Assembly: GCA_944381275.1 (NCBI GenBank)
Contig: CALWKO010000001.1
Span: forward strand, 25,342 to 89,341
Origin: an uncultured Clostridia bacterium
Lineage (GTDB): Bacteria; Bacillota; Clostridia; Christensenellales; UBA3700
Direction of reading: 5' to 3'
DNA: 64,000 bases
Every line of letters begins with the position of its first letter. The stretch's first letter is position 1. The notes under the pieces were generated by a model that made no database searches, was not told the DNA's origin, and saw only the letters and a list, made by a program, of their open reading frames with translations. Shown piece after piece: positions 1,360 to 29,500 of the stretch. The translations under genes were made by a program, and so were the position numbers.

Positions 1360-1360
1360 T

Positions 1361-1705: not shown

Positions 1706-1729
1706 CTTCCTTTCCTTATCCGATATTTA

Positions 1730-2179: not shown

Positions 2180-2311
2180 GACTGCCTCCGTATTTGTATT
2201 TATCATATCACATCGCAAAAAACTTTTCAAGACCCAATTTCTTCACAAAACGCGGCATTTTGTCGAGAAAAGCCTTAAATTCGCCCTCTGCGCGCTTTCT
2301 TTTTATAATTT

Positions 2312-2758
2312 TTACAATAAAAATCTTCCCTTCAAGTAGGGGATGAGCAAGTCGATACCCTTGGCGAGCGTCTGCGCGCACTTGTCGTATGCCTCCTGAT
2401 CCTGACCGTAAGGGTCGGGAACGTCGCCCGACGGGGAGAATTCGCAAAACGCGGCGAGCTTGCCGTCGTCCGTTATGGCGGCGAGCGCCGCGCGCTGCTG
2501 CCAGGTCATGGTCACGATGAAGTCGCTCTCATCTATCAACTGCGGAGTGACGGGTTGGGATAGGTGCGAAAAGCCCGTTATGCCCAGCTTTTTGAGCGCC
2601 TCGATCGCCTTGGGGTTCACCCTTTCGCCGTAGGTGAGGGAGATGGCGGCGCTGTCTGCCGTCATGTCCAGCTTTTGCTCCTTTGCCTTGTGGGTGAATA
2701 TGGCTTGCGCCATAGGGGAACGGCAGGTATTGCCCGTGCACACAAACAAAACTTTCAT
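2312..2758 (-). CDS. Low-molecular-weight protein tyrosine/arginine phosphatase (YwlE-like)
   Basis: The N-terminal P-loop MKVLFVCTGNTCRSPMA matches CX5R(S/T), and the C-terminal DPY motif is present. It has a 4-nt overlap with the upstream tsaC stop. Confidence 0.85.
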   Translation of the reverse strand: MKVLFVCTGNTCRSPMAQAIFTHKAKEQKLDMTADSAAISLTYGERVNPKAIEALKKLGITGFSHLSQPVTPQLIDESDFIVTMTWQQRAALAAITDDGKLAAFCEFSPSGDVPDPYGQDQEAYDKCAQTLAKGIDLLIPYLKGRFLL

Positions 2759-3747: not shown

Positions 3748-3748
3748 T

Positions 3749-12924: not shown

Positions 12925-13452
12925 TCAGTAGTTGTAAACGGCGCTTATGGCGACGTTGAAGTTGGAAGAATTACCCACATAGGTGTAGGTGATATCCACC
13001 GCAGATGCCCTCATAGTAACGGTATCGATGGTAGCGGTGATGGCGCCGCTGTTGTACATCATACCCTGTGTGCCGAGGAAGGAGTTGGGGTTGCTTATAC
13101 TGCCGCTCAAAGTGGCGGAACCTTCGGCAAAAGAAAGGGTCGTATCGGAGAAGTTCAGCGAATCGTAATTAAACGTGCTGCCGCCGTTCATATCGGGCAC
13201 AAAACCCGACACTACGCCCTGGATTTCCGCGGGCACGTCGGCAGCTTCGGGATAGGAATAAATGACGGTGTTGGTGCTGCTGTCCGTCACGGTGACGGTG
13301 ACGTCGGCGACGCCGACGCCGGACGAAGTCTGAGCGAGCACATTAAATGCGTCGTTTACGGTCATCTCCTCCTCGATGCACGCCGCCGCAAACACGACGA
13401 CGGCGCACAGGATAAGTGCGATAGCAATTATTGCCGATTTCTTTTTAGTCAT
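12925..13452 (-). CDS. Small secreted or lipid-anchored protein (175 aa), S/T/N-rich, family unknown
   Basis: The signal peptide MTKKKSAIIAIALILCAVVVFAAAC has a lipobox-like AAAC. Its ATG (13452-13450) overlaps the last codons of the 4,332-aa gene (AATGACTAA). I trimmed the track ORF (which begins at 13494) to this start. Confidence 0.7.
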   Translation of the reverse strand: MTKKKSAIIAIALILCAVVVFAAACIEEEMTVNDAFNVLAQTSSGVGVADVTVTVTDSSTNTVIYSYPEAADVPAEIQGVVSGFVPDMNGGSTFNYDSLNFSDTTLSFAEGSATLSGSISNPNSFLGTQGMMYNSGAITATIDTVTMRASAVDITYTYVGNSSNFNVAISAVYNY

Positions 13453-16400
13453 TGAGGTCATCCTCCTTATTCTTCCTTTTGCGTGCCGCGGCAAAGATGA
13501 GCCCTATGCCGAGCACAGGCATTGCCACGCCGCCTGCAACCACGCCTGCGGTGGCAGCCGCGCTAGCGCCGCTCGCCTTGCCTGCAGCCTTCTCTGCCGC
13601 GCTCACCGCGGAGTCGATTGCCGCCTGCAAGTCTTCTACATACTTTGCCTTGGCTTCTTCCACTTCGGCAAGAGCCGCGTCTATCTCATCGCCCCTCGCC
13701 GCCAAGTCGCCGCTGCTGACCGCGGATATGCTCTGCAGCAGTTCGGAATATCTGGCAAAGCCGGTGACGTTGAAGCCGGACGCCAGGTCTTCCGCCTCCG
13801 CGATTATCGCATCCACGTCTGCGGTGGTGGTGCCGCTAAGCGCTACGGAGAGCGGATACTCGTTCACGCCTTCGTGCGCATAGTTGTCGTCGTTGATCCT
13901 GAGCATGATGCTGAATGCATGCTCGGATTCCAAGTCGCTTATCGTGTTGTCGCCCTTGACCGCCTCATACCAGGTGCTGCCGCCGTCTACGGAGTATTCG
14001 TAGCTGTTGGGCGCGCCCTTGATGTTGAAGGTCACGGAAGTGCTGTTCACGGAAGTTATCGTTGCGGTTACGCCTTGGGCGGCAACTTCCGCTTCCGCTT
14101 CGCTCACGGTGACTTTAGAGTCAACATCGCCGCTCGCTTGACTGCTTATCTCGCCCTGGGTGGTGATACCATTGTAGGAGCATTCAAAGACGAGGTAGAG
14201 GTAGTAGTCGCCCGCGTTCAGCGCGCCGAGCCCTGTGAAGGGGACCGCGAAACCGCTGCCCGTCATGTTGGACGAATTGATGGTTATTTGTTCAGGAACG
14301 CCCAGCTGCGCCACGGTTTTGCCGCTGCCGTCCACAATCCTGGAGGAGCTGCCCGTGGAGAATTTGACGGTAAGGCTGCCCTCCAGCGTCTGCGTTCCGA
14401 GCGAGTTGACTTCGAGCATAACCTTTAAGGAATCGGAGCCGTAGGTGATCGCGTCGGGAGCGGCAGCTATGCCCACGGAAGCGCCTATGCTGTATTCGCG
14501 GCCTTCGAGCTTGCCGGTATAGTTGCCCTTACCGACTATGTCGAATGTGTAATGACCGGTATACATGCCCGCGCCGTCTTTGCCAAAGTCTATCTCGAAG
14601 TCCTCGCCGAGCACGAGAGAGGTCGTCCTGTTATAGGTGACGATCACGTTGAGGTCGTCCTCACTAACGGGCACCGCCTCAACCTTGCCCTCGTTCACCC
14701 TCGTGCGGTAGTTGAACAGGTCGATATACGAGCTGCGGATGGTGGGATCATCATCATCAAGCGGGCGGCGGCTGATTTCAAATTCGGTTTCCACATCGAC
14801 TCTCGTCACGGAAGTGTTGGCGTTGGAGATACCCAAAGTTACCGTGTAAGTGCCCGCGTTGCGGAAGTTGCCCTGCAGCTGAGTCATATCGGCAACGCCG
14901 TTATTCACGTCGTAGCTGAAGTAGGAAGGCTCGGAGCTTTCCGTCTGCTTGTAAGTTACATTCACGGTGAAGGAAGGCACGGCGATGGTGTGAGTTACGC
15001 GGTTGTAGTCGGTCACCGAGATGGTGAGGGAGATGTTGGGCACGAGATCCAAGCCGTTATAGGTGCGCTCGGTTGTGCCCTTCACCGTCACGTTGGGGGT
15101 GATCTTCGGCGTAGGCGCTATCTTAAATGCGTACTCGATGGGTTTCATGCTGTAAGACGCGTTGTTGAAGGTCGCGCTCATCACATAATCGCCCACATAC
15201 ATCGCACTCGTGACGGGATCGCCGCCCGAGGTGATTGTGACTTGTACGTTATTGGTGATGGTCTCCTGCGCATAGTCCCTGTCCGGGGAGAGAGCTACCG
15301 TGCCGGTCAAGGCGCCGGATGCGTCTACCTTGTAAGGTACAATACTCAAGAAGCCCTTCAAGAAGGAGGCGGTGATGTTGGTGCCGTCGAAGTACCTGGT
15401 GAACACGTCGCCTTCCTTAGTGAACAATTTATCGTCGAGAGTGTTGCTCACAGCCACGAAGGGGGACTGACCGATGTTCACGTTGATGTCAAGCGTGGTG
15501 AGGTCGGCTTGGTTGCCGCTTGTATCCACGCCCACGGTGCTGCCCGCAGAGTCGATGAACTTATAGTTTGCCGCAAGCTGGTTGAGCGTGAGGTGGATGT
15601 TGTACTGCCCCACAGCCGCCAAGTTGCCGCTCGCGCCGTCGGTTTCGTCGATGCCGCCCACTTCGCTCAGCTCGCTCAGCTTGACGCCGCCCGCGTAAGC
15701 GCCGTAAGCCGTAAGTTTGCCGTTTTCATCTTGGCTATAGCTCGTGACGATGACGCGGTTGTTGTAGTCGAAGTTCCTGCCCGTGTAGATGGTGTAGTAT
15801 TCGTACCAACCCAGGTGCTGTTCGCCGCCGGGGGTATTTACGCCGGGGGCGGAAGTTTCTTTATAAGGCTCCATTTTGTCGACCGTGTAAGTGAGGTAGT
15901 CGAAGTAAATTCGGAGAATTGCTTTATCGATGACCAAGTTGACGGGTATGGTCAGCGTATTGCCTTCGCCCAAGCCGGTGACGGCATAGTTGGAGTTGTT
16001 GAGGGCGATGGTCACGCTGCCCGTGTAAGAGCCCGCGGAGGACACCGCTTCCTGCACATAGCCGCCGCTTGCGGATATATCGAAGATACCGTAAGTGCCG
16101 AGTCCCTGCCCGTTCACGCTTACGGCATTGTCCGCGCTTGTTGCGCCGTCACCGGTCACGGCAAGACCCGTCTCGCCGCCATAAGTGAGCTTCAAAGGTC
16201 CGAACGAGCTGCCGTTATACACCCTTTCAAAGGTGTAACCTTGGGCGGTAAGCGCAACGGGAGCCTGCCCGTCGATGTCGGAAGTAAGGGACACGCTCAC
16301 GTTTGCAAGGTCGAAGGTTACTTCCGCAGGCGTGACTTCGATATCCACATAGTAATCGGCGGCGATATAAGTATAGTTGTTATAATCGCTCCCGAAGTCG

Positions 16401-19400
16401 GCGATGGAGAGCACATAGGCGTTTGCGATAGTGCCTACGGGATTGCCCACACTATATTGATTCATCGTTTCGAGCGTGGCGGTGTATCTGATTTGAGCCA
16501 TCTCTTCCGCGGTGAGCTCGCTGGAGCCGTGCTGGAACCAATGATTGATGTAGGTTGTCACATCCTCCGTGATGATTTTGGGAGCTTCACTGCCGTAGGT
16601 CACAGATACGGGGCTGCGTCCCGTCTTGGATGTGGTGAGGGTGAGCACTGCGGGGGTGACTTCCATATAAGGATGAGGAATGTTCGCCACGAGTTCGCCC
16701 GAGCGGTTGTAGTTCTCGTCACCGCTGAAGATGACCACGGGGAAGTAGTTGCCCACATTGGTGGCGGCGGGAGCGCCGTTTACGCTCGTGAACTCATAGC
16801 CCGCATATTTCCCGCTTCCTTGCTGAGCCGTAAGCCATTCGGCGATATTAGATTCACCGCTTGCCACAAACGCGTTCACCATTTCGGCGATCTCAGTCTG
16901 AGCGGCGGAGATAGCCGTACTCGTAGCGCCGTCGTCACCGAAGGTTGCCTTGATGTAGTAGATGTCGGCATTTGCGGTTATCATGGGAGCGAGCGCGCCG
17001 TTGAGCTCGAAGGTGAAGTCATCCGAGGAGATGGTGTTGCCGCTTATGCTGTACTCCACGCTGTAACCGTCCTTTTCGAACCTGATGGTGGGGGTCGCCT
17101 TGTTGATGGTTATCTGCACGGGGGCGGAAGGAGTGACGTCGTAGTTTTCACTGCCCTCTACGGTCACCTTTACCCAATAGGAGCCGGCGGTGACGATGGG
17201 GGCTTCTTTGATGTTCACATATTCGCCGTTTTCGGAAGCGGAAACGAGGATATTGATCGTGCCCTGCAGCGAGGATGCGGTTACCTCATTGCCGCCGGCG
17301 GTGACGTTTGCACCCACGCCGTGAGATGTGCCGTTAAAGGTTGCGACGTATATTTCCCCATCAAGTACGAGGTCGGAGTTGCCGGAGTTGATGACGACAT
17401 TCGCCTGCGCGTCGATCTTGGTCACTTGGAAGAAGATATACACGCCTTTGAGTGCGCCCGTAAGGTTGGCGTCATCCGCCGCCACGGTTATGCGGTAGCT
17501 GCCCACGGAGCTGATGTTTTCCACGCCGGTCCAGTGCTGACCGTCGGCGGAGTACTCTATCGTGTTGATGCGCACGTTCTTGGTGGTGTAGGTGCCGTTA
17601 CCTTCGGGAGCGGTGAGAGGCTTGTATTCGATACCCACGCCCACCTGATCGAGCACCGCGTTGTTCCACGAGGTGTTGGGGGTGTAAGGCTGACCGGTAA
17701 GGGTCACGCCTTCGGGTCCAACCACAGCGCCTAAGGAGTTCACAAGCACTTCGGGCGCCGCCTGGGTGACGGTTATCATACTGTTTGCGGTTTCCATCAC
17801 GATTTCAAGGTTGGGGTTGATGGAAGTATACACATAGTAGATGAAGTAGCTGCCAACGGGCGAAGTTACGCCGCCGTATTCAGAGGAAACGCTGCCGTCC
17901 TCGCCGACAAGCTTGATGAAGGAAGCGAGCGCGGACACGGACATATCGCCGCCGGCTGCCTCAACAGCTTCTTCGAACGCGGTGTGCTTACCGGTATTGG
18001 TGGTGTAACCGCCCTCGCCGAGTTCAATCTTAACGTTGAGCTGATCTGCCAAACCTTGCAAGTTAAATTCGGTACCGAACGGCGTGGAGAGGTTAGCGCC
18101 CTCGTTTTGTTCCACGGTGATGTGGTATTCCGCCCTTTGCTGGATGAACATTGCGGTGTAGGAGAAGGACTCGTATCTGCCGGGCATAGCGTCAAAGGTG
18201 AAGGTAAAGGTGTATTCACCCGCATTGACTATGCCGCTACCGGAAGACCTGCCGTTTGCAAAGGAGTAAACCTCGTTGCCGTTTGAATCGGTAACCTTGA
18301 TGGTTATCTTATCGGCGGCGAGCACCTCAAAGTTGTACTCGACGTTGTTCAGCAGCATGGTATAACCTGTGGTGGTCACATTAGCTGTGTCAGAGCCTTG
18401 ATAACCCATTGTGAGCAATTCGCCGCCCGTGGGAATGGCGATACCGCGCATGATGTAGTCGGCAATGTCGCGCGCTTCTTCGTCGGTGATTTGACCGTCC
18501 GCAACGGCATTGAGCTCGCTGTATTCGCCGCCCAAAGCGTCGTTGCCGTCGTTATAGAAGCTGCTCGTATAGAACATGCTGAAGTCTATAGCGGCGGGAT
18601 TTACGGTCACGGAACCGGAAGCGGTGTGAGGCACCTGAATCATCTGGGCAACGCCGTCGATGATGATAGGACCGTTTTCGTCCATTTGCACTTCCTGAGC
18701 GGGACTGTATTCACTGCCGGAATCTTCCGTATTATCCACGCTTACGGATATGCGGTAAAGCGCGGCGACGGTTTCTTTGGTATTGGCGTTATAGCCGGCA
18801 TAGCCGAAGTCGTATACGGCAAAGCCGTTCGAGCCGATGTAGGGGCCGGAGATTTGCACGTTTTCGTCATTTCTGCCTTCGGCCAAGAACGTCTTTACAG
18901 GGGTCTCCCTTATGCCTTCGCCGTTGTTTCCGTTGGGATCATATGCCCAAGTATAGGTATACAGATCGGTGAAGAGCTGTTCGCCGGTGGTGTCGCTTAC
19001 GCCGTAGTTGTAGGCTACGGTGATGACGATGTCGCCCACCTTGAGATCTTCGGTGAGGTTATCCATGCCGGCAAGGTCAACGCCGGTGAACTGGATGATA
19101 TCCGTATTTATCCAATAACGGATATCGGCGCCCGTACCGGTGGAGTAGATGACGTCGCGGCCGTTATAGCCTACCAAGCCGTTGTAATCGGTGCTGACGT
19201 TACCCATCCTAATACTCATAATGCCTTGGGTAATCACCATAACGGTGAGGGAACCATCGCCGTTGGTAATCCAAGTATTGCCGGGAGCGTAGTTGCCGCT
19301 GTAAGCGCCGTCCCTGTTGAATTCCACGAACACATAGTAGCTGCCGCTGGATACGGCGGTGGCACTGGGCTCGCTGTTGACGTAATATCTGTCCGCTTCA

Positions 19401-22400
19401 ATACCGCTCACCAAAGTAGAGAGGTCTACGCCGTCGTTAGCTTTACTCAGCAGTTCATAGAAGGTGAAGTTGAATGCGCTGCTGTCGGTAATGGGCAGCT
19501 GGGTAACTTCACCGGCAAGCGTGATGACCGCCTGGGCGTTGGGGATGATGGGCGCGCCGCTGTAATACACTTGGTTTGCGTCAAGACCCGTACTTGTGGG
19601 CACGGATGCGGAAAGCGTAAACTTATTGGTGGGCGCTATGGTTATGACGCCCTCGTTGGCATCGGGAGCCGTAGCGTAGTACACGTTTGCGGAATCGATG
19701 ACCAAGGTAACGGTATAATCGCCGGCGTCGACGGGTTGCACAGGTTCACCCTCTTCATTGGTATAGGTGAAGGTGTATTGAGCGTTAAAGCCGGTGAGCA
19801 CGTCGTTGAATACGAGCGTTGCGCCGTGAGGCTGGCTGTCGTACATCACGCCTGTGGGAATGTCGATATCCGTCACCTGAGCAAGAGTGTCTGCGTTAAG
19901 AACCCACTGTTCTATCACCATGGTCACGTTGGTGAGCCTTGCATTTGCAAAGTTGTTGCCGGATATGGTGACCACCACGTTATAAGCGCCCACGTTGACG
20001 GTGGAAGCGGTCACACCGTTTTGCTGATATGCGATAGATACGCTCAAAGCGCCGTCGTCATCAACATTGTAAGTCCTATTGCCATAGGAGAAGGTGATGT
20101 CGTTCTGAGCTATCGTTTGTTCTCTGTTGTTGAAGGTGGTGGTGTAAGTTATGGCGCCTTCCACAGCCTCGACGTCCCCGACCGCGGTTATGGTAAGGTT
20201 GGCCTTTGCCACAGAGAAGGACTTGGAGGCAATGCCCGTTACGGAGAAGTTACCGTTGTTGACCGACTCGGAGCCGTTGGTTACGGAAGCCACAGCCACG
20301 GTGGCGGTATAATTACCCGCATTCTTGACCGTATCGCTGTAATTGACGGTGAAGGTCACCACGTCGCCGTTGGTGTGGGTGAAGTCTTCCACGGTGTAGA
20401 GTTCGCCGCTTTCATCAAACGCCTCGCCTTTATAGGTGAGGGTGCCGGCGGGATCCTTCCAAGTCACGGAAGTGATTTGGTAAGGATTGACCGTCAAAGT
20501 GCCTTCCGTTGCCGAGGTGATGGCATAGTTGGCATTGTCGGACTTAATGTCACTTAACGTGAAGGCGTAAGTATCGGCGTTAAGCCTGTTTATTGCCGTC
20601 ACGGGGGCACTGTTTATCATGAGCGTGCCGCTGATGACGGGGAGAGTATCGCTGCCGTAAAGACCTGCGCTACCGGATATCGTATAGGCGATAGCGGGCA
20701 AACTAGCGGACGAGTAAGTCATGGAGATGTTACCCAGCGCTATGGTCAACTCGCGAGGAGTGATGGTGAGCACGCCGGGGTTTACGCTCTGAGTAAAGTT
20801 TTCCGTGCAAGTGACGGCGGCGGAGATTTCGCCTTCGCCTACGCCGTCGCCGATAGATTTATCGGAAGTGAAGACATAGGAATACTCACTTGCTATGGCG
20901 GTGGTATCCTCTACCAAAGCGCCACCCTTGTAAACTTCCACGGTGGCGCTTGCGCCCTGAGTGGGAGCATAGCCATATTGCACGGAATTATTGCCAACGG
21001 TGACTTCAAGGGTGAGTTTCTGCACGTTTATATTGCCGATGCTGTCTGCGGGCAAAGCGTAGTTGTAATAACCTTCTGTCTGCTCGTTGAGCTGAATTGC
21101 GTAGGTGTAAGGAGCCGCATTGGGTGCGGAGTTCAGCACCGCGGAGGTTACGGTTACGAATCTATTGTTGCCGTCCGTAAAGGACAAGCCGCTCATAAGC
21201 AACTCTTCAGTAATGGTATCCGTGTAGTAAGCGGAGACGTCGCTAAGAGTTACGCCTATCACTTTCCTTTCCACTTGGTAAGCAAAAGGCATGGTGAAAG
21301 TAATGTCCTTTGTGCTTTTGTTGCTGTAAGTCACATGCACGGTTACGGATATGGTCGCGGTATAAGAACCGGCGTCAGCCATATTGCTTTGGTCGTATAC
21401 ACCGCTTGTGAACAGCTCCTCAATAGACGTGCTCAAATTGCCCACATCCACACTTGCGGGCTTGAAAGTGGTGCCCGTCAAGCCGAGGCTTGCGGAAGTT
21501 ACTTGCAAGGCGGTGACATCGTCGATAATGTCATCAACATCAATGTTGCCGCTATTATCTACGGTGAGCACACCTTCCACACCGACGGCGGTGAATGCCG
21601 CGAGCAAGGAGAAGGTATCGCCGTAGGTCACCGCGCTTCCTTCGATTCCGTTAAAGCCCAAGCCGAGGCTTATGCGGTAGATGTGCGCGGTGAAAGTGAG
21701 GCCTTCGGCAACTTCGTAGTTTATTTCATCAAAACCTGCCGGCAAGGTCACAGTCATGGTGACGGGGTAGTCACCGCCTTCTGCGGCAATGTTGTTGCCG
21801 CCGTTCAAGGTAAAGGTGATGTTGCCTGCAAATTGATCGGAGACGTCACTGCCGTCAGCGTCGTAGACGACCGCGGTGAAGAAGTCTTCATAATAATCGG
21901 CGGAGGGATCGTCCGCATTGATGAGCAGGGAGCTTATGCCCTCTTGAGGGGTGATGACGAACTTGCTTATCGTCAAAGTATAGGAAGTATTTCCGCTCAA
22001 GGTGTAGTTGGAGTTGTCAAGGGTCACGGTGATGGCATATTCGCCGGCATTCTTGATTTCTCCGCCGCCTGTTGCGGTGAATACGGGGTTGACGACGTCG
22101 CCGCTCACGATGCCCGGGAGCGTGTAAGTGGGATCATATACTTCCTTATTATATACTTGCGTAGCCGCGCCGTCCGTTACGCCGTCAACCGTTATGGTAA
22201 GGTTTTTGTGTGTAACGGTATAAGTTATCGTGGCAGTGGTTGCGGCATAGTTGCCGTTGGAGCCGTCGTAAGTGAAGGTGACGGTATAAGAGCCCACGTT
22301 GCGCAGCGAGCTGACGGTATCTTCACCCTGCTTATAGGAGAGAGTTACGGGGAGAGTATCGTGGATTTCCTCGCTATCGGTGTCGGTGATGGTGTAAGGG

Positions 22401-25400
22401 AAGGTGGGCATATTTACGCCCCTATATTCACTTGTTATCACACCTTCGACCGCACCTGTGACGTTGATCACTATTTGCATAGGATTGATGACGAATGTAC
22501 CCGTGAACGCTTGAGTTACGGCGTTGTAGTTGGCAAGGCCGTCTATCTGCACGGTCACGGAATAAGTCCCCGCGTCTACGGGTACGGCGGAGGATCCGTT
22601 ATACAGGATGGCGATGGCGTTCCTGATGAGTTCTTCTTCACCGCTCACCTCGCCTTCTATCGTCACGTTAGAGGTATCGTATACTACCTCGCTACCCGAA
22701 TATTCTATGGTTTGAGTTTGGGCGTTGACCGTGATGGTTGCCTTTGATACCTCAAATGAAGTCCACTCGTTGCCGCTAGCGTCGCGAACGCCCGTGATGT
22801 TATAGTTGGCGGAGAGGGCTGCTGATACGGCGCCGGGGTAATAGGTGCCGGCGTTGGTGGCTTCCGTAGCGTTTTGCCTGTTGACATCGGAGTAGGCTTG
22901 GAAGGTCACCGTGTCGGCTATGTTATTACCATCGGTAAATGCGGCATTAGTGAGAGCCGTGGCGTTGAAAGTATGTGCCGAGCCCTTGTAGATGAGTTCG
23001 CTTTGGTCGTAGTCAAATTGCACGGCGGTATCGCGCTTGCTCACGTCGAAGGCTTGGGTGTTGGATACCACATTGTAGTTTTCGATACCATCTAGCGAAC
23101 CGGGCGAGTTGATCTCCGTTACTTCGGCGGTTGCCACATAAGAGCCGGCGCCGAAAGGCGTAGTCGTATAAGGGTTGTTATCCTTTGTATATGCGGGCGC
23201 CCATGTGATGATTTGGTCGCCTTGCACAAGTCCGCCCACGGTATAAGCGGGGGTATCGGGAGCTTGCCTGTCGCCGTAAGTGAAGTCGGGTATCTCGCCC
23301 AAATCGATGTTGAGCGTTGCCGGGTTGATATTGAACGGCTGCGACGTGCCCATGGTGACGTTATAGTTGCGTGCGCCGCTGCCGGTGATGTTTTCGTAGA
23401 GCACTTCGTATGCGCCAACGGGGAAATTATTCGCAAATACGGAAGATCCCGCAAGCGAAGAACCGGAAGCCGCCTCAAACAAGAGCTGCCCGGGGTTTGT
23501 GGAATTATTGCCCGTTCTCAAGTTCAAGTTGAGGGTGATGTTATCACGCGAAGCAAAGGCGGTGAGCTGAGTGGCGTCGTCGAAGTCGAGCTCGTAATGC
23601 ACCAAATTCATAAACGCCGCCCTATCGGCAAGTTGAGTGCCGTAGGTCATGGTGCCGCCCACGATATTGAGCGTTACATCGGCGGGGGTTATGGTGAAGG
23701 CGTCTTTGTTATTGGGCGCGGCTTCCAACCTATAGTTATTCGCGGAACCGCCCGTAAGAGAAGTTGCGGATATGTTGTAGTCGCCCGCGTCCACCGCAGA
23801 GGTCGTGCCGCTGATGGTTGCCAATGTGGAAACGCTGTCGTTGCCGATTATTGCGCCCAAGTTGTCATTTTCCGTGGTGCCGAAGGTATAGTTTACCGTG
23901 CCGAAGGTCGTGCCGCCGCTGCCCTGCTCCAGCGCGTAGCCTTGACCGATATAAGGAACGCTGTCGTTCACCACATCGAGGTAGATGGGGCGCTGAGTTA
24001 TCTGCACTTTCGCGGAAGATCCTTGAGCAGGCACGAACACATACTTGCGCGCCCCGCTTGCTTCGGTAAATGCAAACGTGGAGAGCGCAGACCATTGATA
24101 GGTATTGGCGTTCACCATGCCGCTCCAGCCGGATTTTTCCACCGTTTGATATCCGCCGTCGCTATTATATTGCAATTGCAAAATCGAGCCGATAATCGAA
24201 TCGATGTTGGCATTTGAGGTAGACGCGCCGGTAGCGTCGTAATAACAGTCGATCGCATCGCCAACCCCCGTGGTGCCGTTATTGCGGAATACGGTCAAGA
24301 AGCCTTGAGTATTCACGCCCAAGGTCATATAACCGCTGCTAGTGAGCAGATTGCCCTTGCCGTAACTGCTTATTTCGGAATTTACGTTCACTTCCAAGGT
24401 GGGGTAGCTGACCTGCGTTCCGTTATAGATCTTATTGTTATCGCCGTTACCGTTTACGCCGTTGGATACGGAGTAGGTATAGGAAGAGGCATAGGTTATA
24501 GCCATTTCCACATAGTTTGTGTTGCCCTGCACCGCCAATTCCTTGATCTTTACGTTGTTGGCGGTGTTCTGCATAAACACAAGCTGCGTGCTATTGGTAA
24601 CATTGATGTTTGTGGAAGTATTGTTCCACACATAATTTACGTCCCACATTACGCCTTCTTGCGAAGAAGGCGCGCTGATCTCCACCATATAATCGGGATC
24701 GTCGGAGAATTGAATACTGCTTATCACGGCGTCGTCTGCATAGATAAATCTCTTGTTAGTCGAATCGTTACCATCGAACCAGAAGCCGGAACTATATGAT
24801 GCAGTAGAACCTGCTTCAATCGTGTTATGTCCATTTATTATGCTTGCCGTAGGATAACAGGTGTAGCTTTGCCCATTACCGATCGAGTCAATAGTGGCGC
24901 CGCTGGCACCGGAGACGACCATATCCGTCATATATATATTCTGATAAGTTACGGTACCTTCGGGACGACCTACGAACACACCGCGCTTAAATTGGGCGCC
25001 GTCGGTACGATTATCCTGCTGTGGATACCAGGAGTTTGCAAAGGGATAAGAAAAGAGTATACCGTTGAGGGTAGTGTCATTTAACGTACTGCCGATAAAT
25101 CCGCCTATATAGGTATGGACCTTAGACCAGTGACCAACTCCCGTACCCTGGAACAATCTATCAGAACAGATAAATGCCGAAGAGGAAGAGCCATAGATTG
25201 CGATTTTTTCTATCGTGTTATTGCCCCATTCCAAACCTATAAACGTTCCGATATGCGAAGTAGACTTATATCCGGACGCATCGCCTGCGAACGCTTGATA
25301 ATCTTGCACACGTACGTTGCATTGATCCCATACGGAGCTATTAAAGTTGATGGTGACGTTGCTCACATCGGCGGAGGCGTTAAAACCGATCGCGCCGCCT

Positions 25401-26443
25401 GTATACATATCATCCTGACCGCTTTGTCTGTCAAGACCGCTTGAGGGTATGGTGTACATATGAAGCACGTTTTTAGTAAAGTTGCAGCTGATATTGGAAA
25501 GGGTGGAGTGAGTTGATCCGACATTCGCTTGAGCGGAAGGACCGGCATAGCCGACAATGCCGCCGAATGCGGTGCCCGTTCTTTCACTGTTTTCCTCATA
25601 GTAGTGACCGCTTAACGGCCTGTTTTCTTGAGCTTCACTATATGTTCTGCCGCCCCCGTTGGCGTTGGCGTCGGTGAGCTTGAAGTTGGTGAGGGTGCCG
25701 TTGCAAATGGAACCGATGAGCAGACCGCCGGCATTTAAGCCGTAGGTATTCAAAATCATCTCGTTATTAGCACAGTCCCACTTTATCCAGCCATATCTTC
25801 CGGTAGAGGTGGTGTTCCAATACATGAGCATTTGGGACATGCTCAAGGTAACGCCGGCGCCGTCGAACGTGGCGTTGAAGTCGAAGGAGTCAAAGGTATT
25901 ATTCGGGTCGTAAGAGATGGTGCCGCTTGCTTGCACCGCCAAACCGTAATTGCCCGCATTTCGACTGTAATTGGTGGCAGTCATATATGTTTCGAACCCG
26001 AGGAATAAATTGTAACCCGCATTTTTGGTAAAGCGATAGTATGCACCGTTATAATAGAGCTGATAATAATTATTCGTAGCCGTAATATTTCTTCCGGTGT
26101 TCGCCGCTTCACTTGCCGCGCCCGTTTGCGTTATAAGATAGAACGAGTTATCGAGCGTAGCGGGATAGTAGGATATGTTCCCGTCTTGAACAAGTTCGCT
26201 TGCACTCCAACTGACGTTATCGCCCTTCTTATTGGAATGATCCTTTAAGGTGTTAAAGACGTAACTTGCATCCACACTGCCGGTATCGGAACCGATAGTG
26301 AGATCTACGCCGGAAGCCGTTCCTTCCTGTTCGAGATTGTAGAACGCGCCGTTGCCGGTGAGCACTACCGTGAGCACAACAGCCGCAACAAGTATCAGCG
26401 CAAGCGCCGCCGTTACTATCGCGTATTTTCTGCTCTTAACCAT
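13445..26443 (-). CDS. Giant surface repeat protein (4,332 aa): N-terminal signal anchor, GLUG-like head, dozens of MBG/YGX-like adhesin repeats, helical stalk, C-terminal TM anchor
   Basis: Uninterrupted 13-kb ORF with a GGAGGA RBS 8 nt upstream of the ATG. The N-terminus is MVKSRKYAIVTAALALILVAAVVLTVVL. Recurrent units resemble ...TYGD...GLVQGD...AGSYVATA...NYNV...F.V.K. The C-terminus GVAMPVLGIGLIFAAARKRKNKEDDLND has no LPXTG motif. Confidence 0.9.
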   Translation of the reverse strand: MVKSRKYAIVTAALALILVAAVVLTVVLTGNGAFYNLEQEGTASGVDLTIGSDTGSVDASYVFNTLKDHSNKKGDNVSWSASELVQDGNISYYPATLDNSFYLITQTGAASEAANTGRNITATNNYYQLYYNGAYYRFTKNAGYNLFLGFETYMTATNYSRNAGNYGLAVQASGTISYDPNNTFDSFDFNATFDGAGVTLSMSQMLMYWNTTSTGRYGWIKWDCANNEMILNTYGLNAGGLLIGSICNGTLTNFKLTDANANGGGRTYSEAQENRPLSGHYYEENSERTGTAFGGIVGYAGPSAQANVGSTHSTLSNISCNFTKNVLHMYTIPSSGLDRQSGQDDMYTGGAIGFNASADVSNVTINFNSSVWDQCNVRVQDYQAFAGDASGYKSTSHIGTFIGLEWGNNTIEKIAIYGSSSSAFICSDRLFQGTGVGHWSKVHTYIGGFIGSTLNDTTLNGILFSYPFANSWYPQQDNRTDGAQFKRGVFVGRPEGTVTYQNIYMTDMVVSGASGATIDSIGNGQSYTCYPTASIINGHNTIEAGSTASYSSGFWFDGNDSTNKRFIYADDAVISSIQFSDDPDYMVEISAPSSQEGVMWDVNYVWNNTSTNINVTNSTQLVFMQNTANNVKIKELAVQGNTNYVEMAITYASSYTYSVSNGVNGNGDNNKIYNGTQVSYPTLEVNVNSEISSYGKGNLLTSSGYMTLGVNTQGFLTVFRNNGTTGVGDAIDCYYDATGASTSNANIDSIIGSILQLQYNSDGGYQTVEKSGWSGMVNANTYQWSALSTFAFTEASGARKYVFVPAQGSSAKVQITQRPIYLDVVNDSVPYIGQGYALEQGSGGTTFGTVNYTFGTTENDNLGAIIGNDSVSTLATISGTTSAVDAGDYNISATSLTGGSANNYRLEAAPNNKDAFTITPADVTLNIVGGTMTYGTQLADRAAFMNLVHYELDFDDATQLTAFASRDNITLNLNLRTGNNSTNPGQLLFEAASGSSLAGSSVFANNFPVGAYEVLYENITGSGARNYNVTMGTSQPFNINPATLNIDLGEIPDFTYGDRQAPDTPAYTVGGLVQGDQIITWAPAYTKDNNPYTTTPFGAGSYVATAEVTEINSPGSLDGIENYNVVSNTQAFDVSKRDTAVQFDYDQSELIYKGSAHTFNATALTNAAFTDGNNIADTVTFQAYSDVNRQNATEATNAGTYYPGAVSAALSANYNITGVRDASGNEWTSFEVSKATITVNAQTQTIEYSGSEVVYDTSNVTIEGEVSGEEELIRNAIAILYNGSSAVPVDAGTYSVTVQIDGLANYNAVTQAFTGTFVINPMQIVINVTGAVEGVITSEYRGVNMPTFPYTITDTDSEEIHDTLPVTLSYKQGEDTVSSLRNVGSYTVTFTYDGSNGNYAATTATITYTVTHKNLTITVDGVTDGAATQVYNKEVYDPTYTLPGIVSGDVVNPVFTATGGGEIKNAGEYAITVTLDNSNYTLSGNTSYTLTISKFVITPQEGISSLLINADDPSADYYEDFFTAVVYDADGSDVSDQFAGNITFTLNGGNNIAAEGGDYPVTMTVTLPAGFDEINYEVAEGLTFTAHIYRISLGLGFNGIEGSAVTYGDTFSLLAAFTAVGVEGVLTVDNSGNIDVDDIIDDVTALQVTSASLGLTGTTFKPASVDVGNLSTSIEELFTSGVYDQSNMADAGSYTATISVTVHVTYSNKSTKDITFTMPFAYQVERKVIGVTLSDVSAYYTDTITEELLMSGLSFTDGNNRFVTVTSAVLNSAPNAAPYTYAIQLNEQTEGYYNYALPADSIGNINVQKLTLEVTVGNNSVQYGYAPTQGASATVEVYKGGALVEDTTAIASEYSYVFTSDKSIGDGVGEGEISAAVTCTENFTQSVNPGVLTITPRELTIALGNISMTYSSASLPAIAYTISGSAGLYGSDTLPVISGTLMINSAPVTAINRLNADTYAFTLSDIKSDNANYAITSATEGTLTVNPYQITSVTWKDPAGTLTYKGEAFDESGELYTVEDFTHTNGDVVTFTVNYSDTVKNAGNYTATVAVASVTNGSESVNNGNFSVTGIASKSFSVAKANLTITAVGDVEAVEGAITYTTTFNNREQTIAQNDITFSYGNRTYNVDDDGALSVSIAYQQNGVTASTVNVGAYNVVVTISGNNFANARLTNVTMVIEQWVLNADTLAQVTDIDIPTGVMYDSQPHGATLVFNDVLTGFNAQYTFTYTNEEGEPVQPVDAGDYTVTLVIDSANVYYATAPDANEGVITIAPTNKFTLSASVPTSTGLDANQVYYSGAPIIPNAQAVITLAGEVTQLPITDSSAFNFTFYELLSKANDGVDLSTLVSGIEADRYYVNSEPSATAVSSGSYYVFVEFNRDGAYSGNYAPGNTWITNGDGSLTVMVITQGIMSIRMGNVSTDYNGLVGYNGRDVIYSTGTGADIRYWINTDIIQFTGVDLAGMDNLTEDLKVGDIVITVAYNYGVSDTTGEQLFTDLYTYTWAYDPNGNNGEGIRETPVKTFLAEGRNDENVQISGPYIGSNGFAVYDFGYAGYNANTKETVAALYRISVSVDNTEDSGSEYSPAQEVQMDENGPIIIDGVAQMIQVPHTASGSVTVNPAAIDFSMFYTSSFYNDGNDALGGEYSELNAVADGQITDEEARDIADYIMRGIAIPTGGELLTMGYQGSDTANVTTTGYTMLLNNVEYNFEVLAADKITIKVTDSNGNEVYSFANGRSSGSGIVNAGEYTFTFTFDAMPGRYESFSYTAMFIQQRAEYHITVEQNEGANLSTPFGTEFNLQGLADQLNVKIELGEGGYTTNTGKHTAFEEAVEAAGGDMSVSALASFIKLVGEDGSVSSEYGGVTSPVGSYFIYYVYTSINPNLEIVMETANSMITVTQAAPEVLVNSLGAVVGPEGVTLTGQPYTPNTSWNNAVLDQVGVGIEYKPLTAPEGNGTYTTKNVRINTIEYSADGQHWTGVENISSVGSYRITVAADDANLTGALKGVYIFFQVTKIDAQANVVINSGNSDLVLDGEIYVATFNGTSHGVGANVTAGGNEVTASSLQGTINILVSASENGEYVNIKEAPIVTAGSYWVKVTVEGSENYDVTPSAPVQITINKATPTIRFEKDGYSVEYSISGNTISSDDFTFELNGALAPMITANADIYYIKATFGDDGATSTAISAAQTEIAEMVNAFVASGESNIAEWLTAQQGSGKYAGYEFTSVNGAPAATNVGNYFPVVIFSGDENYNRSGELVANIPHPYMEVTPAVLTLTTSKTGRSPVSVTYGSEAPKIITEDVTTYINHWFQHGSSELTAEEMAQIRYTATLETMNQYSVGNPVGTIANAYVLSIADFGSDYNNYTYIAADYYVDIEVTPAEVTFDLANVSVSLTSDIDGQAPVALTAQGYTFERVYNGSSFGPLKLTYGGETGLAVTGDGATSADNAVSVNGQGLGTYGIFDISASGGYVQEAVSSAGSYTGSVTIALNNSNYAVTGLGEGNTLTIPVNLVIDKAILRIYFDYLTYTVDKMEPYKETSAPGVNTPGGEQHLGWYEYYTIYTGRNFDYNNRVIVTSYSQDENGKLTAYGAYAGGVKLSELSEVGGIDETDGASGNLAAVGQYNIHLTLNQLAANYKFIDSAGSTVGVDTSGNQADLTTLDINVNIGQSPFVAVSNTLDDKLFTKEGDVFTRYFDGTNITASFLKGFLSIVPYKVDASGALTGTVALSPDRDYAQETITNNVQVTITSGGDPVTSAMYVGDYVMSATFNNASYSMKPIEYAFKIAPTPKITPNVTVKGTTERTYNGLDLVPNISLTISVTDYNRVTHTIAVPSFTVNVTYKQTESSEPSYFSYDVNNGVADMTQLQGNFRNAGTYTVTLGISNANTSVTRVDVETEFEISRRPLDDDDPTIRSSYIDLFNYRTRVNEGKVEAVPVSEDDLNVIVTYNRTTSLVLGEDFEIDFGKDGAGMYTGHYTFDIVGKGNYTGKLEGREYSIGASVGIAAAPDAITYGSDSLKVMLEVNSLGTQTLEGSLTVKFSTGSSSRIVDGSGKTVAQLGVPEQITINSSNMTGSGFAVPFTGLGALNAGDYYLYLVFECSYNGITTQGEISSQASGDVDSKVTVSEAEAEVAAQGVTATITSVNSTSVTFNIKGAPNSYEYSVDGGSTWYEAVKGDNTISDLESEHAFSIMLRINDDNYAHEGVNEYPLSVALSGTTTADVDAIIAEAEDLASGFNVTGFARYSELLQSISAVSSGDLAARGDEIDAALAEVEEAKAKYVEDLQAAIDSAVSAAEKAAGKASGASAAATAGVVAGGVAMPVLGIGLIFAAARKRKNKEDDLND
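14120..24005 (-). repeat. Array of roughly 75-95-aa divergent Ig-like adhesin repeats (MBG/YGX-type-like), about 35-40 copies estimated by eye
   Basis: The recurrent pattern is I.P/K A.LT/I..., Y(N/D)G or TYG, then (N/D)AG(T/S)Y.VTV, NY.., and F.I.(K/P). Examples: YNGSSAVPVDAGTYSVTVQIDGLANYNAV, YDSQPHGATL...DAGDYTVTLVIDSANVYY. The copies are diverged at the DNA level, so this is not a recent amplification. Confidence 0.6.
24955..25734 (-). other. GLUG-motif-like region in the head of the 4,332-aa protein
   Basis: Serial G-hydrophobic-x-G motifs: AGGLLIGS, FGGIVGYAG, TGGAIGFNAS, IGTFIGLEWG, IGGFIGSTLN, RGVFVGRPEG. Confidence 0.45.
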
Positions 26444-26478
26444 AATTTATTCCTCCAAATACCTTTCCTTTATGTTTG

Positions 26479-26507
26479 CGCATGCGGCGCGGCTTGCGCC
26501 GCATGCG
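26479..26507 (-). promoter_or_regulatory. Perfect 12-bp stem-loop in the 70-nt gap between the two giant genes (not followed by a U-tract)
   Basis: CGCATGCGGCGC (26479-26490), loop GGCTT, GCGCCGCATGCG (26496-26507). On the transcript it is followed by CAAACATAAAGGAAAGGTATTTGGAGGAATAAATTATG. Confidence 0.6.
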
Positions 26508-26513
26508 AGTTGA

Positions 26514-29500
26514 TTATTGTTGTTCGCCCTGATTCGAGCTTTGGGTCAGCTGAATGCGCTTTGCCTGCTTGAAGTTGCAGCCCGCGTATTCCACAAGCGC
26601 GCCGGTGGCGTTGTACTTTGCCACGTCGTAGCCGATGTAGGCATATCCGTAGCCGCCGGTGGATTCCCTGATGACGGCGGGCAATTCGAGCACATAACCG
26701 CCGGTGAAGGTCACCCTTGCGGTAGTAGTCACGGTGCCCTTAGGCACGCTGTCCACCCATTCGCCGTCCACCAAGAATTGCATGGTATCGATAACGCCGG
26801 AGTTGATCTGCACGCTCATTTCGTAACCCGTCCAACGGAAGGAGTAACGCGTTTCGTCGTTTTCGAGGTAGAAGGTCTTCGTGCTGTCGGCAACGGTGTA
26901 CCAATTGCTCACAAACTCTTCCGCCGAGATGAAGTTGCCCTCTTTGTTCCTCCACATCACGCTCACGGATTCGGTTATGCCGTTCTCGTAAGTCACGTCG
27001 ACCGCACCGGGCAACGGGTTGTTCGCGTCACTGCCCGTTACGAGATACATATAGTAATCGTAAGGGTTGAGCACCACGGTATCCGCCGCCGAGCCGTGCA
27101 CGCTGATAGATGCAGGCCTCTTGGTGGGGATATCCACGACGACCGTAAGGTTTTGAGTGAACGCGCCCGCGTTAGCGGCATCTTTGAGCATATCGGTATC
27201 GACGTTCACCGCGATGTCGATAAAGAAGGTGTCGCCCTTGAGGTTGGTGGCGGTATCTTTCCTGAACCTTTTTATCCATTCGCCCAGGGTGATGGACCTG
27301 CCGTCGGTATCTTCGATGTACCTGGAGCCCGTTATTATCGTATCGGTAGTGAGTTCCGACTCGCCGCCCCAAGAGATGCCGCTGCCGTTCGTGAGCACGG
27401 AGCCATCGGCATAGTTGACAAGGAGCGCTTGAATGGCGTTGCTTATCTTGGCGGTGACGTCGATGAGTTCGCCGTTTTCGTCATACTCATTCTGCAAGGT
27501 ATTCATATCCACCGTAACGGTAGGATTGACCAGCGAGCTATCCATGTAGTTGATGGTCAGCCGTACTTTCTTGCCGTTCTTGAAGGTGAGCGTTGCATCT
27601 TCCGTATCCGATTGAGCATAGCCGGCGGCGTCGGACGCATAACCGGAGATGTAAGCGTCGTAGTTGCCGGAAAGATGATCTTCAGAGTTCTGCTTGACCA
27701 CCTTATAACGCTTGCGCTCGCCCCTCCAGGTCGTCATGATGATGTATTCGGGCAGCTCGTCGTAGTAGTAGAGGTTCCAATCGTCCACGGAAGCGTATTC
27801 GTCCCGACCGTCGTGCGCCCAAGGATCAGTGCTGGTAGTGTCGTTGATTAAGCACTTTTCTATCTCGATGTCCATGGTAGCAACTCTGCCGCTGCCGAAG
27901 TTCGCCTCAGCCACTACGGTGACTATAAGACCGGTTGACTCATTAGCCCTACCCAAAGCTGTTGCAAGAAGCTGCCCGCCGTCGACGCCGGAGCCATTAA
28001 GATCGGTGCCGTTTAATTTAAACGTCACGTTTGCACGGGCAAAGCTTGTGCCGTTCTGCCACCTTGCGGTGTAGGCATTGCCGAAGTAGGTATCCATCAA
28101 GTAAGGACCCGCTTGGGTATTCCAACCCATCGAGTATTGATCGAAGACAATCCTGTTGGGCAGGTTACCCCAGCTGACTATGCCGCCGAGATCGTTATCA
28201 AGGCCGCTAATGGTGTCACCCAATGTTTCACTCGTGTTGTAGATTTCAATACGAGTGTAGCTGCGCAAGTTGGACTCGACGCTGTGCCTGTTGATCACGG
28301 TGGTCACGCCGCTGATATCGTTCACGAGCTTGCCGTTTACGTCGTAGCCGCCGCGCCTATACAAGGAGGATCCGTTGCTGGCAAGAGCGCCGCCGTAACC
28401 TGCGTTGCCGCCGTTAGCACCCGTGCCCGGAGTGACTTCCACTTTAGTGTAATCATAATCTCCGCCATATACGCTGCCGTAAGGTATTGCGTAGGTGAAC
28501 ACGGGCATGGTTTGGTAGACTATGCCGCCCGTATTGGTTGCACGATAAGGTATCGTCAAAGTTTCGCCGTTGATCTGCCTACCTATATCCTGACTCGAAG
28601 GGTTGTATTCGTAGTCGGTATCGGCGCCGGAGCCGGGCATATACCAGTTATAGTCACCGCCGTTGCCGTTATACAACGTCTTGGCGTAGTACACATATAC
28701 GTCGTTTACGCCCGTATCTTTGTTATACCTGAGCACCGCCGAGCCGTCGTCGTTACCCATGAAGGAGATGTTGGTCAGCACACCGTTGGACATGTTCACA
28801 TTCAACTCCGCGCTCGTCCATATCGAGATAGGTACGAACTTCGAGAAGATGCTCAGCATGATAGGCATAAGACCCCAGTCACTATCATCCCACTTGGACC
28901 ATTGCAACGAATCGTCATGACTCCTCAATGTCGCCGCGGAGACCGTCGCGCCGGCCTCGTTGACGGCGATGTTCATCTGGTAGAGCAAGTCCGCCAGCAA
29001 GCCGCGCAAGTTCGCCGCCAAGGAGTCGAGCGTGGAAGTAGGATGATTTTGTTCGTTGGTAACAAACGAGTGTTCGTCATTACCTTTACCGTTGCCTATC
29101 AATCTGTTTTCGGACATGTTAGCCCTATCCCACCACATGAACATCAGGTAGTTGATGGCGAAGTAGCCGTTACCCAACGACGCCGTGGTGAGGTCGAGCG
29201 CACTGTTCGCGCCGAAGATGGAGCCGAAGATGGCGTCCACAGCCTTGTTCATCTCGTAAGGGTCGAACCTAACGGTGAGGTTCATTTCACCCGTGGAGTT
29301 GAGGTTGAAGTAGATGCCGCCCGTAGTGGTAACCACATTGCCGCTATCCGAAGGCGTGAAGTTGCCGCTAGTATCATACGAGCCCCTGACCAAGCCGCCG
29401 CCCAGCAACTTCCAGATGTCGATCTCTGCAAGCGCCGCGCTGAAGCCGGTGGGATCGGATTCGCCCGTTACGGTGACGGTATACGATTCGTAGTAGTTGG

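Follow-up and report, generated by a model that had tools for sequence, protein, structure and literature searches.

A 4,332-residue protein with an MBG-type stalk, strongly conserved termini and a predicted C-terminal membrane anchor, encoded between two predicted lipoprotein genes of an uncultured Clostridia bacterium

Results and Discussion

A giant gene with collinear relatives

Bacteria of the Christensenellales type are heritable, health-associated members of the gut microbiota and, to our knowledge, almost nothing is known about their surfaces. Here we describe a stretch of 64,000 nucleotides (nt) from an uncultured Clostridia bacterium of this lineage (assembly GCA_944381275.1, contig CALWKO010000001.1, positions 25,342 to 89,341 of the forward strand), which is referred to as the window. 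A module of three genes spans 34.9 kb, which is more than half of the window, and its central gene specifies a protein of 4,332 amino acids (aa), referred to as the giant MBG protein after the type of its stalk repeats (Table 1). A first-pass annotation of the sequence had presented the product as a giant adhesin-like surface protein anchored in the membrane at both ends. The first part of this description is supported by the intact open reading frame (ORF), the collinear relatives, the MBG stalk and the C-terminal transmembrane (TM) segment; anchoring at both ends is unproven.

The gene is real and intact. Its frame is uninterrupted over 4,332 codons, a GGAGG ribosome-binding site that is invariant across the aligned loci lies 8 nt before the ATG, and both the NCBI and the ENA assemblies hold the identical protein, called there as a 4,332-aa gene. 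Moreover, five full-length relatives of 4,364-4,482 aa were found, which are collinear with it from end to end and show 40-54% identity in an alignment of about 4,100 columns. They originate from an uncultured Clostridia metagenome-assembled genome (MAG), an uncultured Christensenellaceae MAG and Candidatus Alloclostridium intestinigallinarum. Because the GGAGG sequence is invariant, the assemblies call the protein and five relatives align end to end, we regard the minus-strand frame as the gene, and the long frames on the opposite strand, which reach 1,060 aa, were rejected as shadows. The six family members range from 4,332 to 4,482 aa, and the copy number of their repeats does not vary. Their termini are strongly conserved, with 83% identity at the N-terminus and 70% at the C-terminus compared to 31-55% in the interior, and strongly hydrophobic segments are present only at residues ~8-29 and ~4295-4321. 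The whole protein matched neither an NCBIfam model nor a sequence in the PDB.

When proteins were grouped at 90% identity, the cluster of the giant MBG protein had 3 members, compared to 206 for the adjacent amylase and 25 for the ComF-like protein encoded nearby. The small size of this cluster fits the rapid divergence of an exposed protein, and poor assembly of giant genes may contribute to it. It should be noted that a word-indexed protein search returned only fragments of at most 1,325 aa and never full-length members (4,331-4,482 aa), although one of these represents the 90% cluster to which the query belongs. Such an index apparently misses very long proteins, and the hit counts of this search, which would understate the size of giant-protein families, were not taken as family size.

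Table 1. Features of the three-gene module. Coordinates are positions in the window; residues are those of the giant MBG protein.
Feature	Residues	Coordinates	Strand	Basis
Giant MBG protein, complete ORF, 4,332 aa, 460 kDa, isoelectric point (pI) 4.1	1-4332	13445..26443	minus	exact protein in assemblies, collinear relatives
N-terminal signal or anchor: MVKSRK, hydrophobic core of 21-22 residues, TG	1-30	26354..26443	minus	hydropathy 3.0
Non-repetitive, lineage-specific head (~815 aa)	31-846	23906..26353	minus	profile and family searches
Six periodic G-h-h-G rungs, spacing 41-57 aa	235-497	24953..25741	minus	pattern count against shuffles
Near-contiguous array of ~16-17 MBG-type units	847-2390	19274..23905	minus	self-profile, hhalign, Pfam
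Mosaic stalk half, single MBG-type units between unique segments	2391-4125	14069..19273	minus	self-profile, hhalign
MBG-type units of the mosaic half	2705-2763, 3081-3115, 3460-3500, 3720-3777, 3823-3892			
FN3-like beta sandwich	4126-4205	13829..14068	minus	AlphaFold2, pLDDT 79-87
Ala/Glu-rich helical module	4210-4289	13577..13816	minus	AlphaFold2, pLDDT 86-94
Ala/Gly/Ser linker, Gly/Pro-containing TM and cytoplasmic tail (...GG.AMP.LGIG.IFAAARKRKNKEDDLND)	4290-4332	13448..13576	minus	
Upstream lipoprotein gene, 7,113 aa, 754 kDa, pI 4.05		26514..47855	minus	synteny
Downstream lipoprotein gene, 175 aa		12925..13452	minus	conserved adjacency
Intergenic leader, 70 nt: 12-bp GC hairpin (26479-26507), GGAGG ribosome-binding site (26452-26456)		26444..26513	minus	alignment of 7 loci

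The stalk is built from divergent MBG-type units

The stalk has a length of ~3,300 aa. To judge from profile comparisons, its repeats are of the MBG type and number about 20-25. Four families of this type were tested with the Pfam gathering score as the criterion, namely MBG (PF17883), MBG_2 (PF18676), MBG_3 (PF18887) and YDG (PF18657). The whole protein remained below threshold, with 21.7 bits for MBG_2 and 19.7 bits for MBG_3 at a cut-off of 25. When the stalk was scanned as 51 overlapping slices of 130 aa, these were nevertheless the commonest families (MBG_3 in 9 slices, MBG_2 in 5, MBG in 5 and YDG in 2). Two units passed the cut-off of 25 when scanned singly: the unit at residues 1896-1987 reached 31.1 bits with MBG_2 in a match covering all profile positions (1-72), and that at residues 1233-1321 scored 27.4 bits on MBG_3. 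All other units stayed below the Pfam threshold.

The units are highly divergent, and a phmmer search started from a single unit retrieved just one further unit at E<1e-3. An initial iterative profile shrank to half a unit and was replaced by an alignment of 19 units anchored on their aGxY motif. The resulting self-profile recognised 20 units at E≤1e-3, but gave no match when run on 20 shuffled versions of the stalk or on the 7,113-aa neighbour. Likewise, a comparison by hhalign of the six-member family alignment with the unit profile assigned probabilities of 85-97% to the ~20 units already recognised and of 10-25% to some five others, compared to values of at most 0.4% throughout the head, which served as an internal negative control. 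The assignment to the MBG type is further supported by the finding that a family profile of the first unit matches outside proteins that bear 3-10 bona fide MBG_2, YDG or MBG_3 domains. In the first-pass annotation, 35-40 MBG/YGX-like repeats had been counted over some 10 kb. Their type was confirmed, but their number is roughly double the one supported by the profiles, and about 1,400 aa in the C-terminal half are unique.

These unique parts form segments of 215-340 aa (residues 2390-2704, 2764-3080, 3116-3459, 3501-3719 and 3893-4125). A comparison of the five non-MBG segments and sub-regions of the head by hhalign disclosed no super-repeat, with values of at most 3.4%, and none of them matched the unit profile. 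Stalk slices did show weak matches to other Ig-like families (FlgD_ig, PKD, Invasin_D3 and Big_3_5), and residues 4005-4104 are predicted by AlphaFold2 to form a beta sandwich. Together, these observations suggest that the unique segments may be other beta-sandwich domains.

A head without relatives outside the family

The head that precedes the stalk had no Pfam match at E≤1, and none among NCBIfam models or PDB sequences. A profile of this head and those of four relatives was compared exhaustively by HMMER with 1.84 billion cluster representatives, and 22 proteins were returned. About 13 of the 22 match the head, and all of these are members or fragments of the giant-protein family, while the remainder match the first MBG unit only. 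As the only matches to the head among 1.84 billion representatives come from its own family, we consider it lineage-specific. Across the family, the head is conserved no better than the stalk.

Closer examination of the head revealed six or seven G-h-h-G motifs (at residues 239, 290/294, 349, 399, 447 and 488). The pattern, which was defined post hoc, is expected 0.08 times in shuffled sequences and does not occur in its strict form anywhere else in the protein. The glycines of the motifs are invariant among the relatives. The first-pass annotation had reported a head of about 800 aa with six GLUG-like motifs, and had proposed a Pfam scan for MBG, MBG_2 and GLUG as a check. Six periodic glycine-rich motifs are indeed present, and the scan retrieved the MBG_2 and MBG_3 units described above. 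However, ten 60-aa slices over residues 221-550 matched neither GLUG (PF07581) nor any other Pfam family at E≤10, with the reservation that the HMMER filters may hide very weak matches. The likeness to GLUG would therefore appear to be confined to the motif level.

The structure of the head could be predicted only poorly, as the AlphaFold2 model from a five-sequence alignment had a mean predicted local distance difference test (pLDDT) score of 47.5. In this model, about 30 unstructured residues lie between the N-terminal helix and the first folded domain, residues 60-210 form a confident domain, and regular strand triplets are seen at residues 240-510. The triplets at residues 290-507 would fit a beta-solenoid. 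A Foldseek search of the model against the PDB gave nothing at E≤1e-3, and matches to the beta-helices of tailspikes and pectinases, with probabilities of at most 0.06, were not used as evidence.

The C-terminal module ends in a nearly invariant membrane segment and tail

The C-terminal part was modelled with AlphaFold2 over residues 3944-4332 from an alignment of six sequences. Both the FN3-like unit and the Ala/Glu-rich helical segment of the first-pass annotation were recovered with good scores (Table 1). Foldseek matched the model to tandem FN3 structures in the PDB, with a best E-value of 8e-7 and 137 matches at E≤1e-3; there was no match of the FN3-like unit to Pfam fn3. The helical module consists of three helices (residues 4210-4222, 4228-4240 and 4244-4289), many residues of which are invariant in the relatives. 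The Ala/Gly/Ser linker that follows is disordered in the model and leads into a terminal helix. The hydrophobic segment is followed by RKRKNKEDDLND, a positively charged tail as found in the layout of sorting signals, in which the basic residues give way to acidic ones. This end of the protein is almost invariant in the family and reads G-G-x-(A/S)-(M/L)-P-x-L-G-I-G-x-I-F-A-A-A-R-K-R-K-x-K-E-(D/E)-D-L-N-D, with six to seven invariant residues beyond the basic cluster. The Gly-Gly pair is not invariant, being AG in the family member P0043.

We examined whether the C-terminus carries a variant sorting motif. The last 90 aa of the six members contain none of the patterns LPxT[GAND], LPxGA, LAxTG, IPxTG, NPxTG, NPQT[MN], [SP]PxTG and NVQTG, and no NCBIfam sorting-signal model, including those for LPXTG, GlyGly-CTERM and PGF-CTERM, matches at E≤10. 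This agrees with the earlier view of a C-terminal TM segment with an RKRKNK tail and no LPXTG-like motif upstream. Among the scanned ORFs of the window there is no sortase domain. When the last 253 aa served as the query of a protein search, members of the giant-protein family only were found. The same was true for a scan of metagenome contigs with the tail pattern, which among the matches listed gave this family only and added four further loci (L007-L010).

These results bear on the possibility that the C-terminus is a processing signal, which a non-canonical sortase, a rhomboid-type protease or a similar enzyme would cut near GG..(M/L)P..GIG, leading to release of the protein or its linkage to the wall. 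The helix-breaking Pro and Gly within the TM segment are invariant, and the tail RKRKNKEDDLND is like the charged tails of LPXTG proteins such as those of the M-protein type. The Gly/Pro motif with the hydrophobic stretch and basic cluster that follow it also recalls the tripartite layout of LPXTG, PEP-CTERM and GlyGly-CTERM, which are many-to-one sorting signals (PMC3237569). In GlyGly-CTERM, the Gly-Gly motif and TM segment are followed by a basic cluster with 0-5 residues after it, and the tail is common to many unrelated proteins per genome (PMC3237569). The present tail, in contrast, does not behave as a many-to-one sorting signal, because it is found on the giant-protein family only and not, among the matches listed, on many paralogues. 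The six members lack all nine sortase motifs of Monzon et al. as well as the clostridial (S/P)PxTG, the Gly-Gly pair is not invariant, no sortase accompanies the gene among the scanned ORFs of the window, and the seven invariant residues past the basic cluster favour a tail that is retained and has a function in the cytoplasm. We consequently view C-terminal processing as very unlikely. An LPXTG protein was rejected on account of the missing sortase motif in all six members. A substrate of a GlyGly-CTERM/rhombosortase system was likewise rejected in view of the unmatched model, the AG in P0043, the 6-7 residues past the basic cluster and the restriction of the tail to one family among the matches listed.

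The N-terminal segment is conserved at the peptide level

The N-terminus reads MVKSRK-YAIVTAALALILVAAVVLTVVL-TGNG, with three positive charges and a core of 21-22 residues, and its n/h/c layout, which the first-pass annotation had read as an uncleaved-looking signal anchor, is equally compatible with a long Gram-positive signal peptide and with a signal anchor. Small residues at the candidate -1/-3 positions (L-T-G before N, and G-N-G before A) are kept in all members, but there is no AXA. None of the models for YSIRK, KxYKxGKxW and lipoprotein signals matches. A Tat signal was rejected, as the sequence has no RR motif, and so was a type IV pilin-like signal, as there is no G followed by FTLxE.

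Identity within the family drops from 83% at residues 1-30 to 39% at residues 31-60. This pattern could, in principle, reflect an effect of DNA conservation or recombination at the 5' end. However, 8-9 of the 24 conserved N-terminal codons differ synonymously between two allele groups, and an effect of this kind alone was therefore rejected for the coding part: selection acts on the N-terminal peptide and not only on the DNA. The 33 nt preceding the ATG are nevertheless invariant. Such conservation is unusual for an ordinary signal, and could be explained by an anchor that is retained, by a cleaved signal of a specialised kind or by a need for strong targeting of the 460-kDa chain by the signal recognition particle (SRP). 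It does not discriminate between cleavage and retention, because signals of the YSIRK type are also highly conserved and yet cleaved (PMC5962339). Indeed, the fate of such N-terminal sequences is hard to predict, and many proteins with putative sites for type I signal peptidase (SPase I) are actually kept as N-anchored proteins (PMC2375117).

A scan of GTDB genomes with the patterns MV[KR]SRKYA[IL] or [VI]TAALALIL[VI] gave 46 stretches, and among the matches listed three were confirmed as relatives of the head. A query with the N-terminal 45 aa found no matches, but it missed the known relatives too and is uninformative as to whether other proteins share the signal.

A proposed surface fibre with a single C-terminal anchor

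The reading that we favour, and to which we would give an even chance, is that the giant MBG protein is a fibrillar surface protein of a monoderm, Christensenellales-like gut Clostridia bacterium, which is exported via Sec and anchored in the membrane by its C-terminus with the head pointing outward. The chain would be exported co-translationally, and the long hydrophobic core at its N-terminus would favour SRP targeting. The C-terminal helix would serve as a stop-transfer anchor, with the RKRKNK cluster keeping the tail in the cytoplasm, while the helical module and the linker would adjoin the membrane and traverse the wall zone. Since the head folds about 30 residues after the N-terminal helix, whereas the C-terminus has the helical module and the linker, the N-terminal sequence would be either removed or without a tethering role. 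The head would be located at the far end of a rod in the order of 100-150 nm, a length scaled from CdrA of Pseudomonas aeruginosa, in which 15 MBG_2 repeats measure 71 nm and each repeat thus contributes about 4-5 nm (PMC9704523). There, it may bind a ligand, such as a glycan, a host surface or another cell, and the 175-aa and 7,113-aa lipoproteins may act together with the giant MBG protein at the membrane surface. If the head is indeed adhesive, it would represent a new ligand-binding domain family.

This reading is in line with what is known about fibrillar adhesins, which are characterised by great length, a rod of repeated stalk domains, a surface anchor and an adhesive region, and for which MBG is a recognised stalk domain (PMC9210967). 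In Gram-positive bacteria, these proteins usually have an unannotated and often beta-solenoid N-terminal head in the distal position and an anchor at the C-terminus (PMC9210967). The corresponding structural features are all present in the giant MBG protein, which has 4,332 aa, a stalk of about 20 MBG-type units together with Ig/FN3-like domains, and a TM segment at its C-terminus. No known adhesive domain was recognised in the head.

Several known proteins share part of this architecture. CdrA is likewise a monomeric rod with a beta-rich N-terminal head and an MBG-type stalk (PMC9704523). However, CdrA is a Gram-negative two-partner-secretion substrate at the outer membrane, whereas the giant MBG protein is predicted to be TM-anchored. 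The head of CdrA is near-invariant and its repeats number 3-21, whereas in the giant MBG protein the head diverges like the stalk and the architecture is fixed (bioRxiv 10.64898/2026.07.13.738186). No sequence relationship between the two heads was detected, and the giant MBG protein is further set apart by a conserved gene module that includes two lipoproteins. The staphylococcal surface proteins Ebh and Embp are giant as well (1 MDa), and have an N-terminal export signal and a long repeat rod, with a C-terminal region that is helical and ends in a TM segment without LPXTG (PMC4856396, PMC4330918). They differ in that their rods consist of alpha-helical FIVAR/GA repeats followed by DUF1542, and in their YSIRK signal. 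As no match to FIVAR, GA, DUF1542 or YSIRK was obtained in Pfam/NCBIfam, a homologue of Ebh/Embp was rejected, and the relation appears to be one of analogy, with the anchoring layout alone in common.

The LPXTG fibrillar adhesins of the Firmicutes present a signal, a head, a stalk, a C-terminal hydrophobic segment and a charged tail in the same order (PMC9210967), but the six members of the present family have neither an LPXTG-like pentapeptide nor a match to an anchor hidden Markov model. A C-terminal TM stop-transfer anchor that is oriented by positive charges is known from ActA of Listeria, the signal of which is cleaved (PMC4010754, PMC2375117), although ActA is small, has no repeat stalk and shows no sequence similarity to the giant MBG protein. 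Together with nine other predicted Listeria proteins, ActA makes up a hydrophobic-tail class (PMC4010754), and proteins anchored by a C-terminal tail are covered by the 'C-anchored' class of LocateP (PMC2375117). Lastly, periscope proteins are also long surface rods of tandem Ig-like repeats (PMC9704523). Their repeats are near-identical and vary in copy number between strains, in contrast to the divergent units and the collinearity of the six members, and a periscope protein was rejected on these grounds.

The first-pass annotation had regarded both retention of the two ends and processing of one end as unusual for this protein class. This view was overstated, because a class of C-anchored Gram-positive proteins is known, and a cleaved signal combined with a hydrophobic-tail anchor is recognised in ActA and Ebh/Embp (PMC4010754, PMC2375117, PMC4856396, PMC4330918). 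Within an established kind of protein, the giant MBG protein represents an unusual form. Its family nevertheless extends what can be said about the stalk domain. While MBG stalks are known from LPXTG, type IX secretion and two-partner-secretion adhesins, the present family shows that such a stalk can also be joined to a simple TM anchor at the C-terminus and to a head that has no known relatives.

Some observations do not sit easily with a single C-terminal anchor and a distal adhesive head. The adhesive function is one that we infer from the architecture, and the model of the head has low confidence. The c-region of the N-terminal segment (VLTG before NG) lacks a canonical AXA site. In proteins that are otherwise 40-54% identical, the 83% identity over the first 30 aa, with selection on the peptide, is also unexpected, as ordinary cleaved signals are seldom so conserved. 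Furthermore, the TM segment holds an invariant Pro and several Gly, which would suit an intramembrane cleavage site as well. Finally, the head is conserved no better than the stalk, in contrast to the near-invariant head of CdrA (bioRxiv 10.64898/2026.07.13.738186).

In view of the conserved N-terminus, it has to be considered that both termini stay in the membrane, with an N-in signal anchor and a C-in stop-transfer segment. The ectodomain of 4,260 aa would then form a giant hairpin or loop, the two helices of which possibly pack against each other. The positive-inside rule is obeyed at both ends (MVKSRK and RKRKNK), a core of 21-22 residues without a subsequent AXA can span the bilayer, and the two helices contain many small residues (Ala/Gly) of the sort seen in packing motifs. 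The much stronger peptide-level conservation of the two termini relative to the interior is also consistent with this topology, as is the retention of many proteins with putative SPase I sites as N-anchored proteins (PMC2375117). On the other hand, the head would be trapped under the wall if it folds some 30 residues past a retained helix, which defeats the logic of a stalk with a distal head (PMC9210967). The small residues at -1/-3 are conserved in all members, as would suit cleavage, the conservation of the N-terminus is shared by cleaved YSIRK-type signals (PMC5962339), and no precedent for such a loop was found among fibrillar adhesins in the literature consulted. The conserved termini keep the idea of two anchors alive, without singling it out, and we consider this topology unlikely. 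If both termini are retained, the protein would define a new topology for the class of fibrillar adhesins. Irrespective of the topology, the strongly conserved termini provide handles for tagging and localisation.

The giant gene is part of a conserved three-gene module

Upstream of the gene for the giant MBG protein lies that of a 7,113-aa protein with the lipoprotein signal MGKSKNKLLIILMVAVLAVTACGLLLSAC. This protein has no meaningful Pfam match and no sequence match in the PDB. It contains large super-repeats marked by '...DLS.ITILGI.LPVYK...' (for example at residues 825, 1688, 3030 and 4765) and FN3-like 'W...Y' units, and its last ~430 aa are conserved. A homologue of the 7,113-aa ORF precedes the giant MBG gene in the related loci (L001-L006 and L011), and this lipoprotein may be the more novel object of the locus. 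Directly downstream of the giant gene, wherever its 3' end is present (L001 and L007-L011), lies the gene for a 175-aa protein with the lipoprotein signal MTKKKSAIIAIALILCAVVVFAAAC..., which has no match in Pfam. The ATG of this gene falls within the last codons of the giant ORF, the overlap being 8 nt (so called in L001 and L011), which suggests that the two genes may be translationally coupled. The next gene after it is ComF-like (L001 and L011).

The leader between the two giant genes contains a hairpin with a perfect 12-bp GC stem (GCAUGCGGCGC / GCGCCGCAUGC) and no U-tract. Its fold energy is -26.7 kcal/mol, with a z-score of -3.56, and in locus L004 the stem carries a compensatory G>A / C>U change. 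The 33 nt after the hairpin are invariant in the seven loci and read AUAAAGGAAAGGUAUUUGGAGGAAUAAAUU followed by AUG. The hairpin could stabilise the mRNA, mark a site of processing or serve as an attenuator; a scan of the window against Rfam gave no match.

The module thus specifies three proteins that are predicted to be tethered to the membrane, two of which are among the largest bacterial proteins, with little or no annotation. In this context, the giant MBG protein may not primarily be an adhesin, but a structural part of a fixed-size assembly with the two lipoproteins, for example a spacer, a shield or a scaffold of the envelope, comparable to the reported role of Ebh in the cell envelope. 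Such a role would account for the order of the three genes being kept in all related loci and for the 8-nt overlap with the small lipoprotein gene. It would also match the narrow length range of the collinear family members, as opposed to the variable repeats of CdrA (3-21) and of periscope proteins (PMC9704523; bioRxiv 10.64898/2026.07.13.738186). However, any interaction with the lipoproteins is hypothetical, and the divergence of head and stalk is rapid compared to the well-conserved products of adjacent genes (90% clusters of 3 versus 206 for the amylase), a pattern characteristic of ligand-binding or antigenic proteins that are exposed. The topology would be the same as that of the C-terminally anchored fibre, and the difference would lie in function only. 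We regard a primarily structural role as rather improbable. A further reading, in which the three genes would build an undescribed giant surface structure of Christensenellales-like gut bacteria and both terminal helices would hold the giant MBG protein in the membrane as a loop or hairpin of fixed length instead of a free fibre, appears quite improbable.

Other proteins of the window

A 351-aa lipoprotein with BspA-type leucine-rich repeats and the signal MRKLAITLAVILLLSLGCGIALSAC is encoded at positions 54636-55691 on the minus strand. Apart from the giant MBG protein, the three predicted surface proteins of the window (7,113, 175 and 351 aa) are all lipoproteins, and only the 4,332-aa protein is without a lipobox. 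On the plus strand (positions 4683-6047), a gene encodes a 454-aa protein that has a membrane region at its N-terminus, a repeat rich in Ala/Glu/Lys and, at the C-terminal end, two DUF1508 domains. An ORF of 427 aa that overlaps this gene in antisense is probably a shadow.

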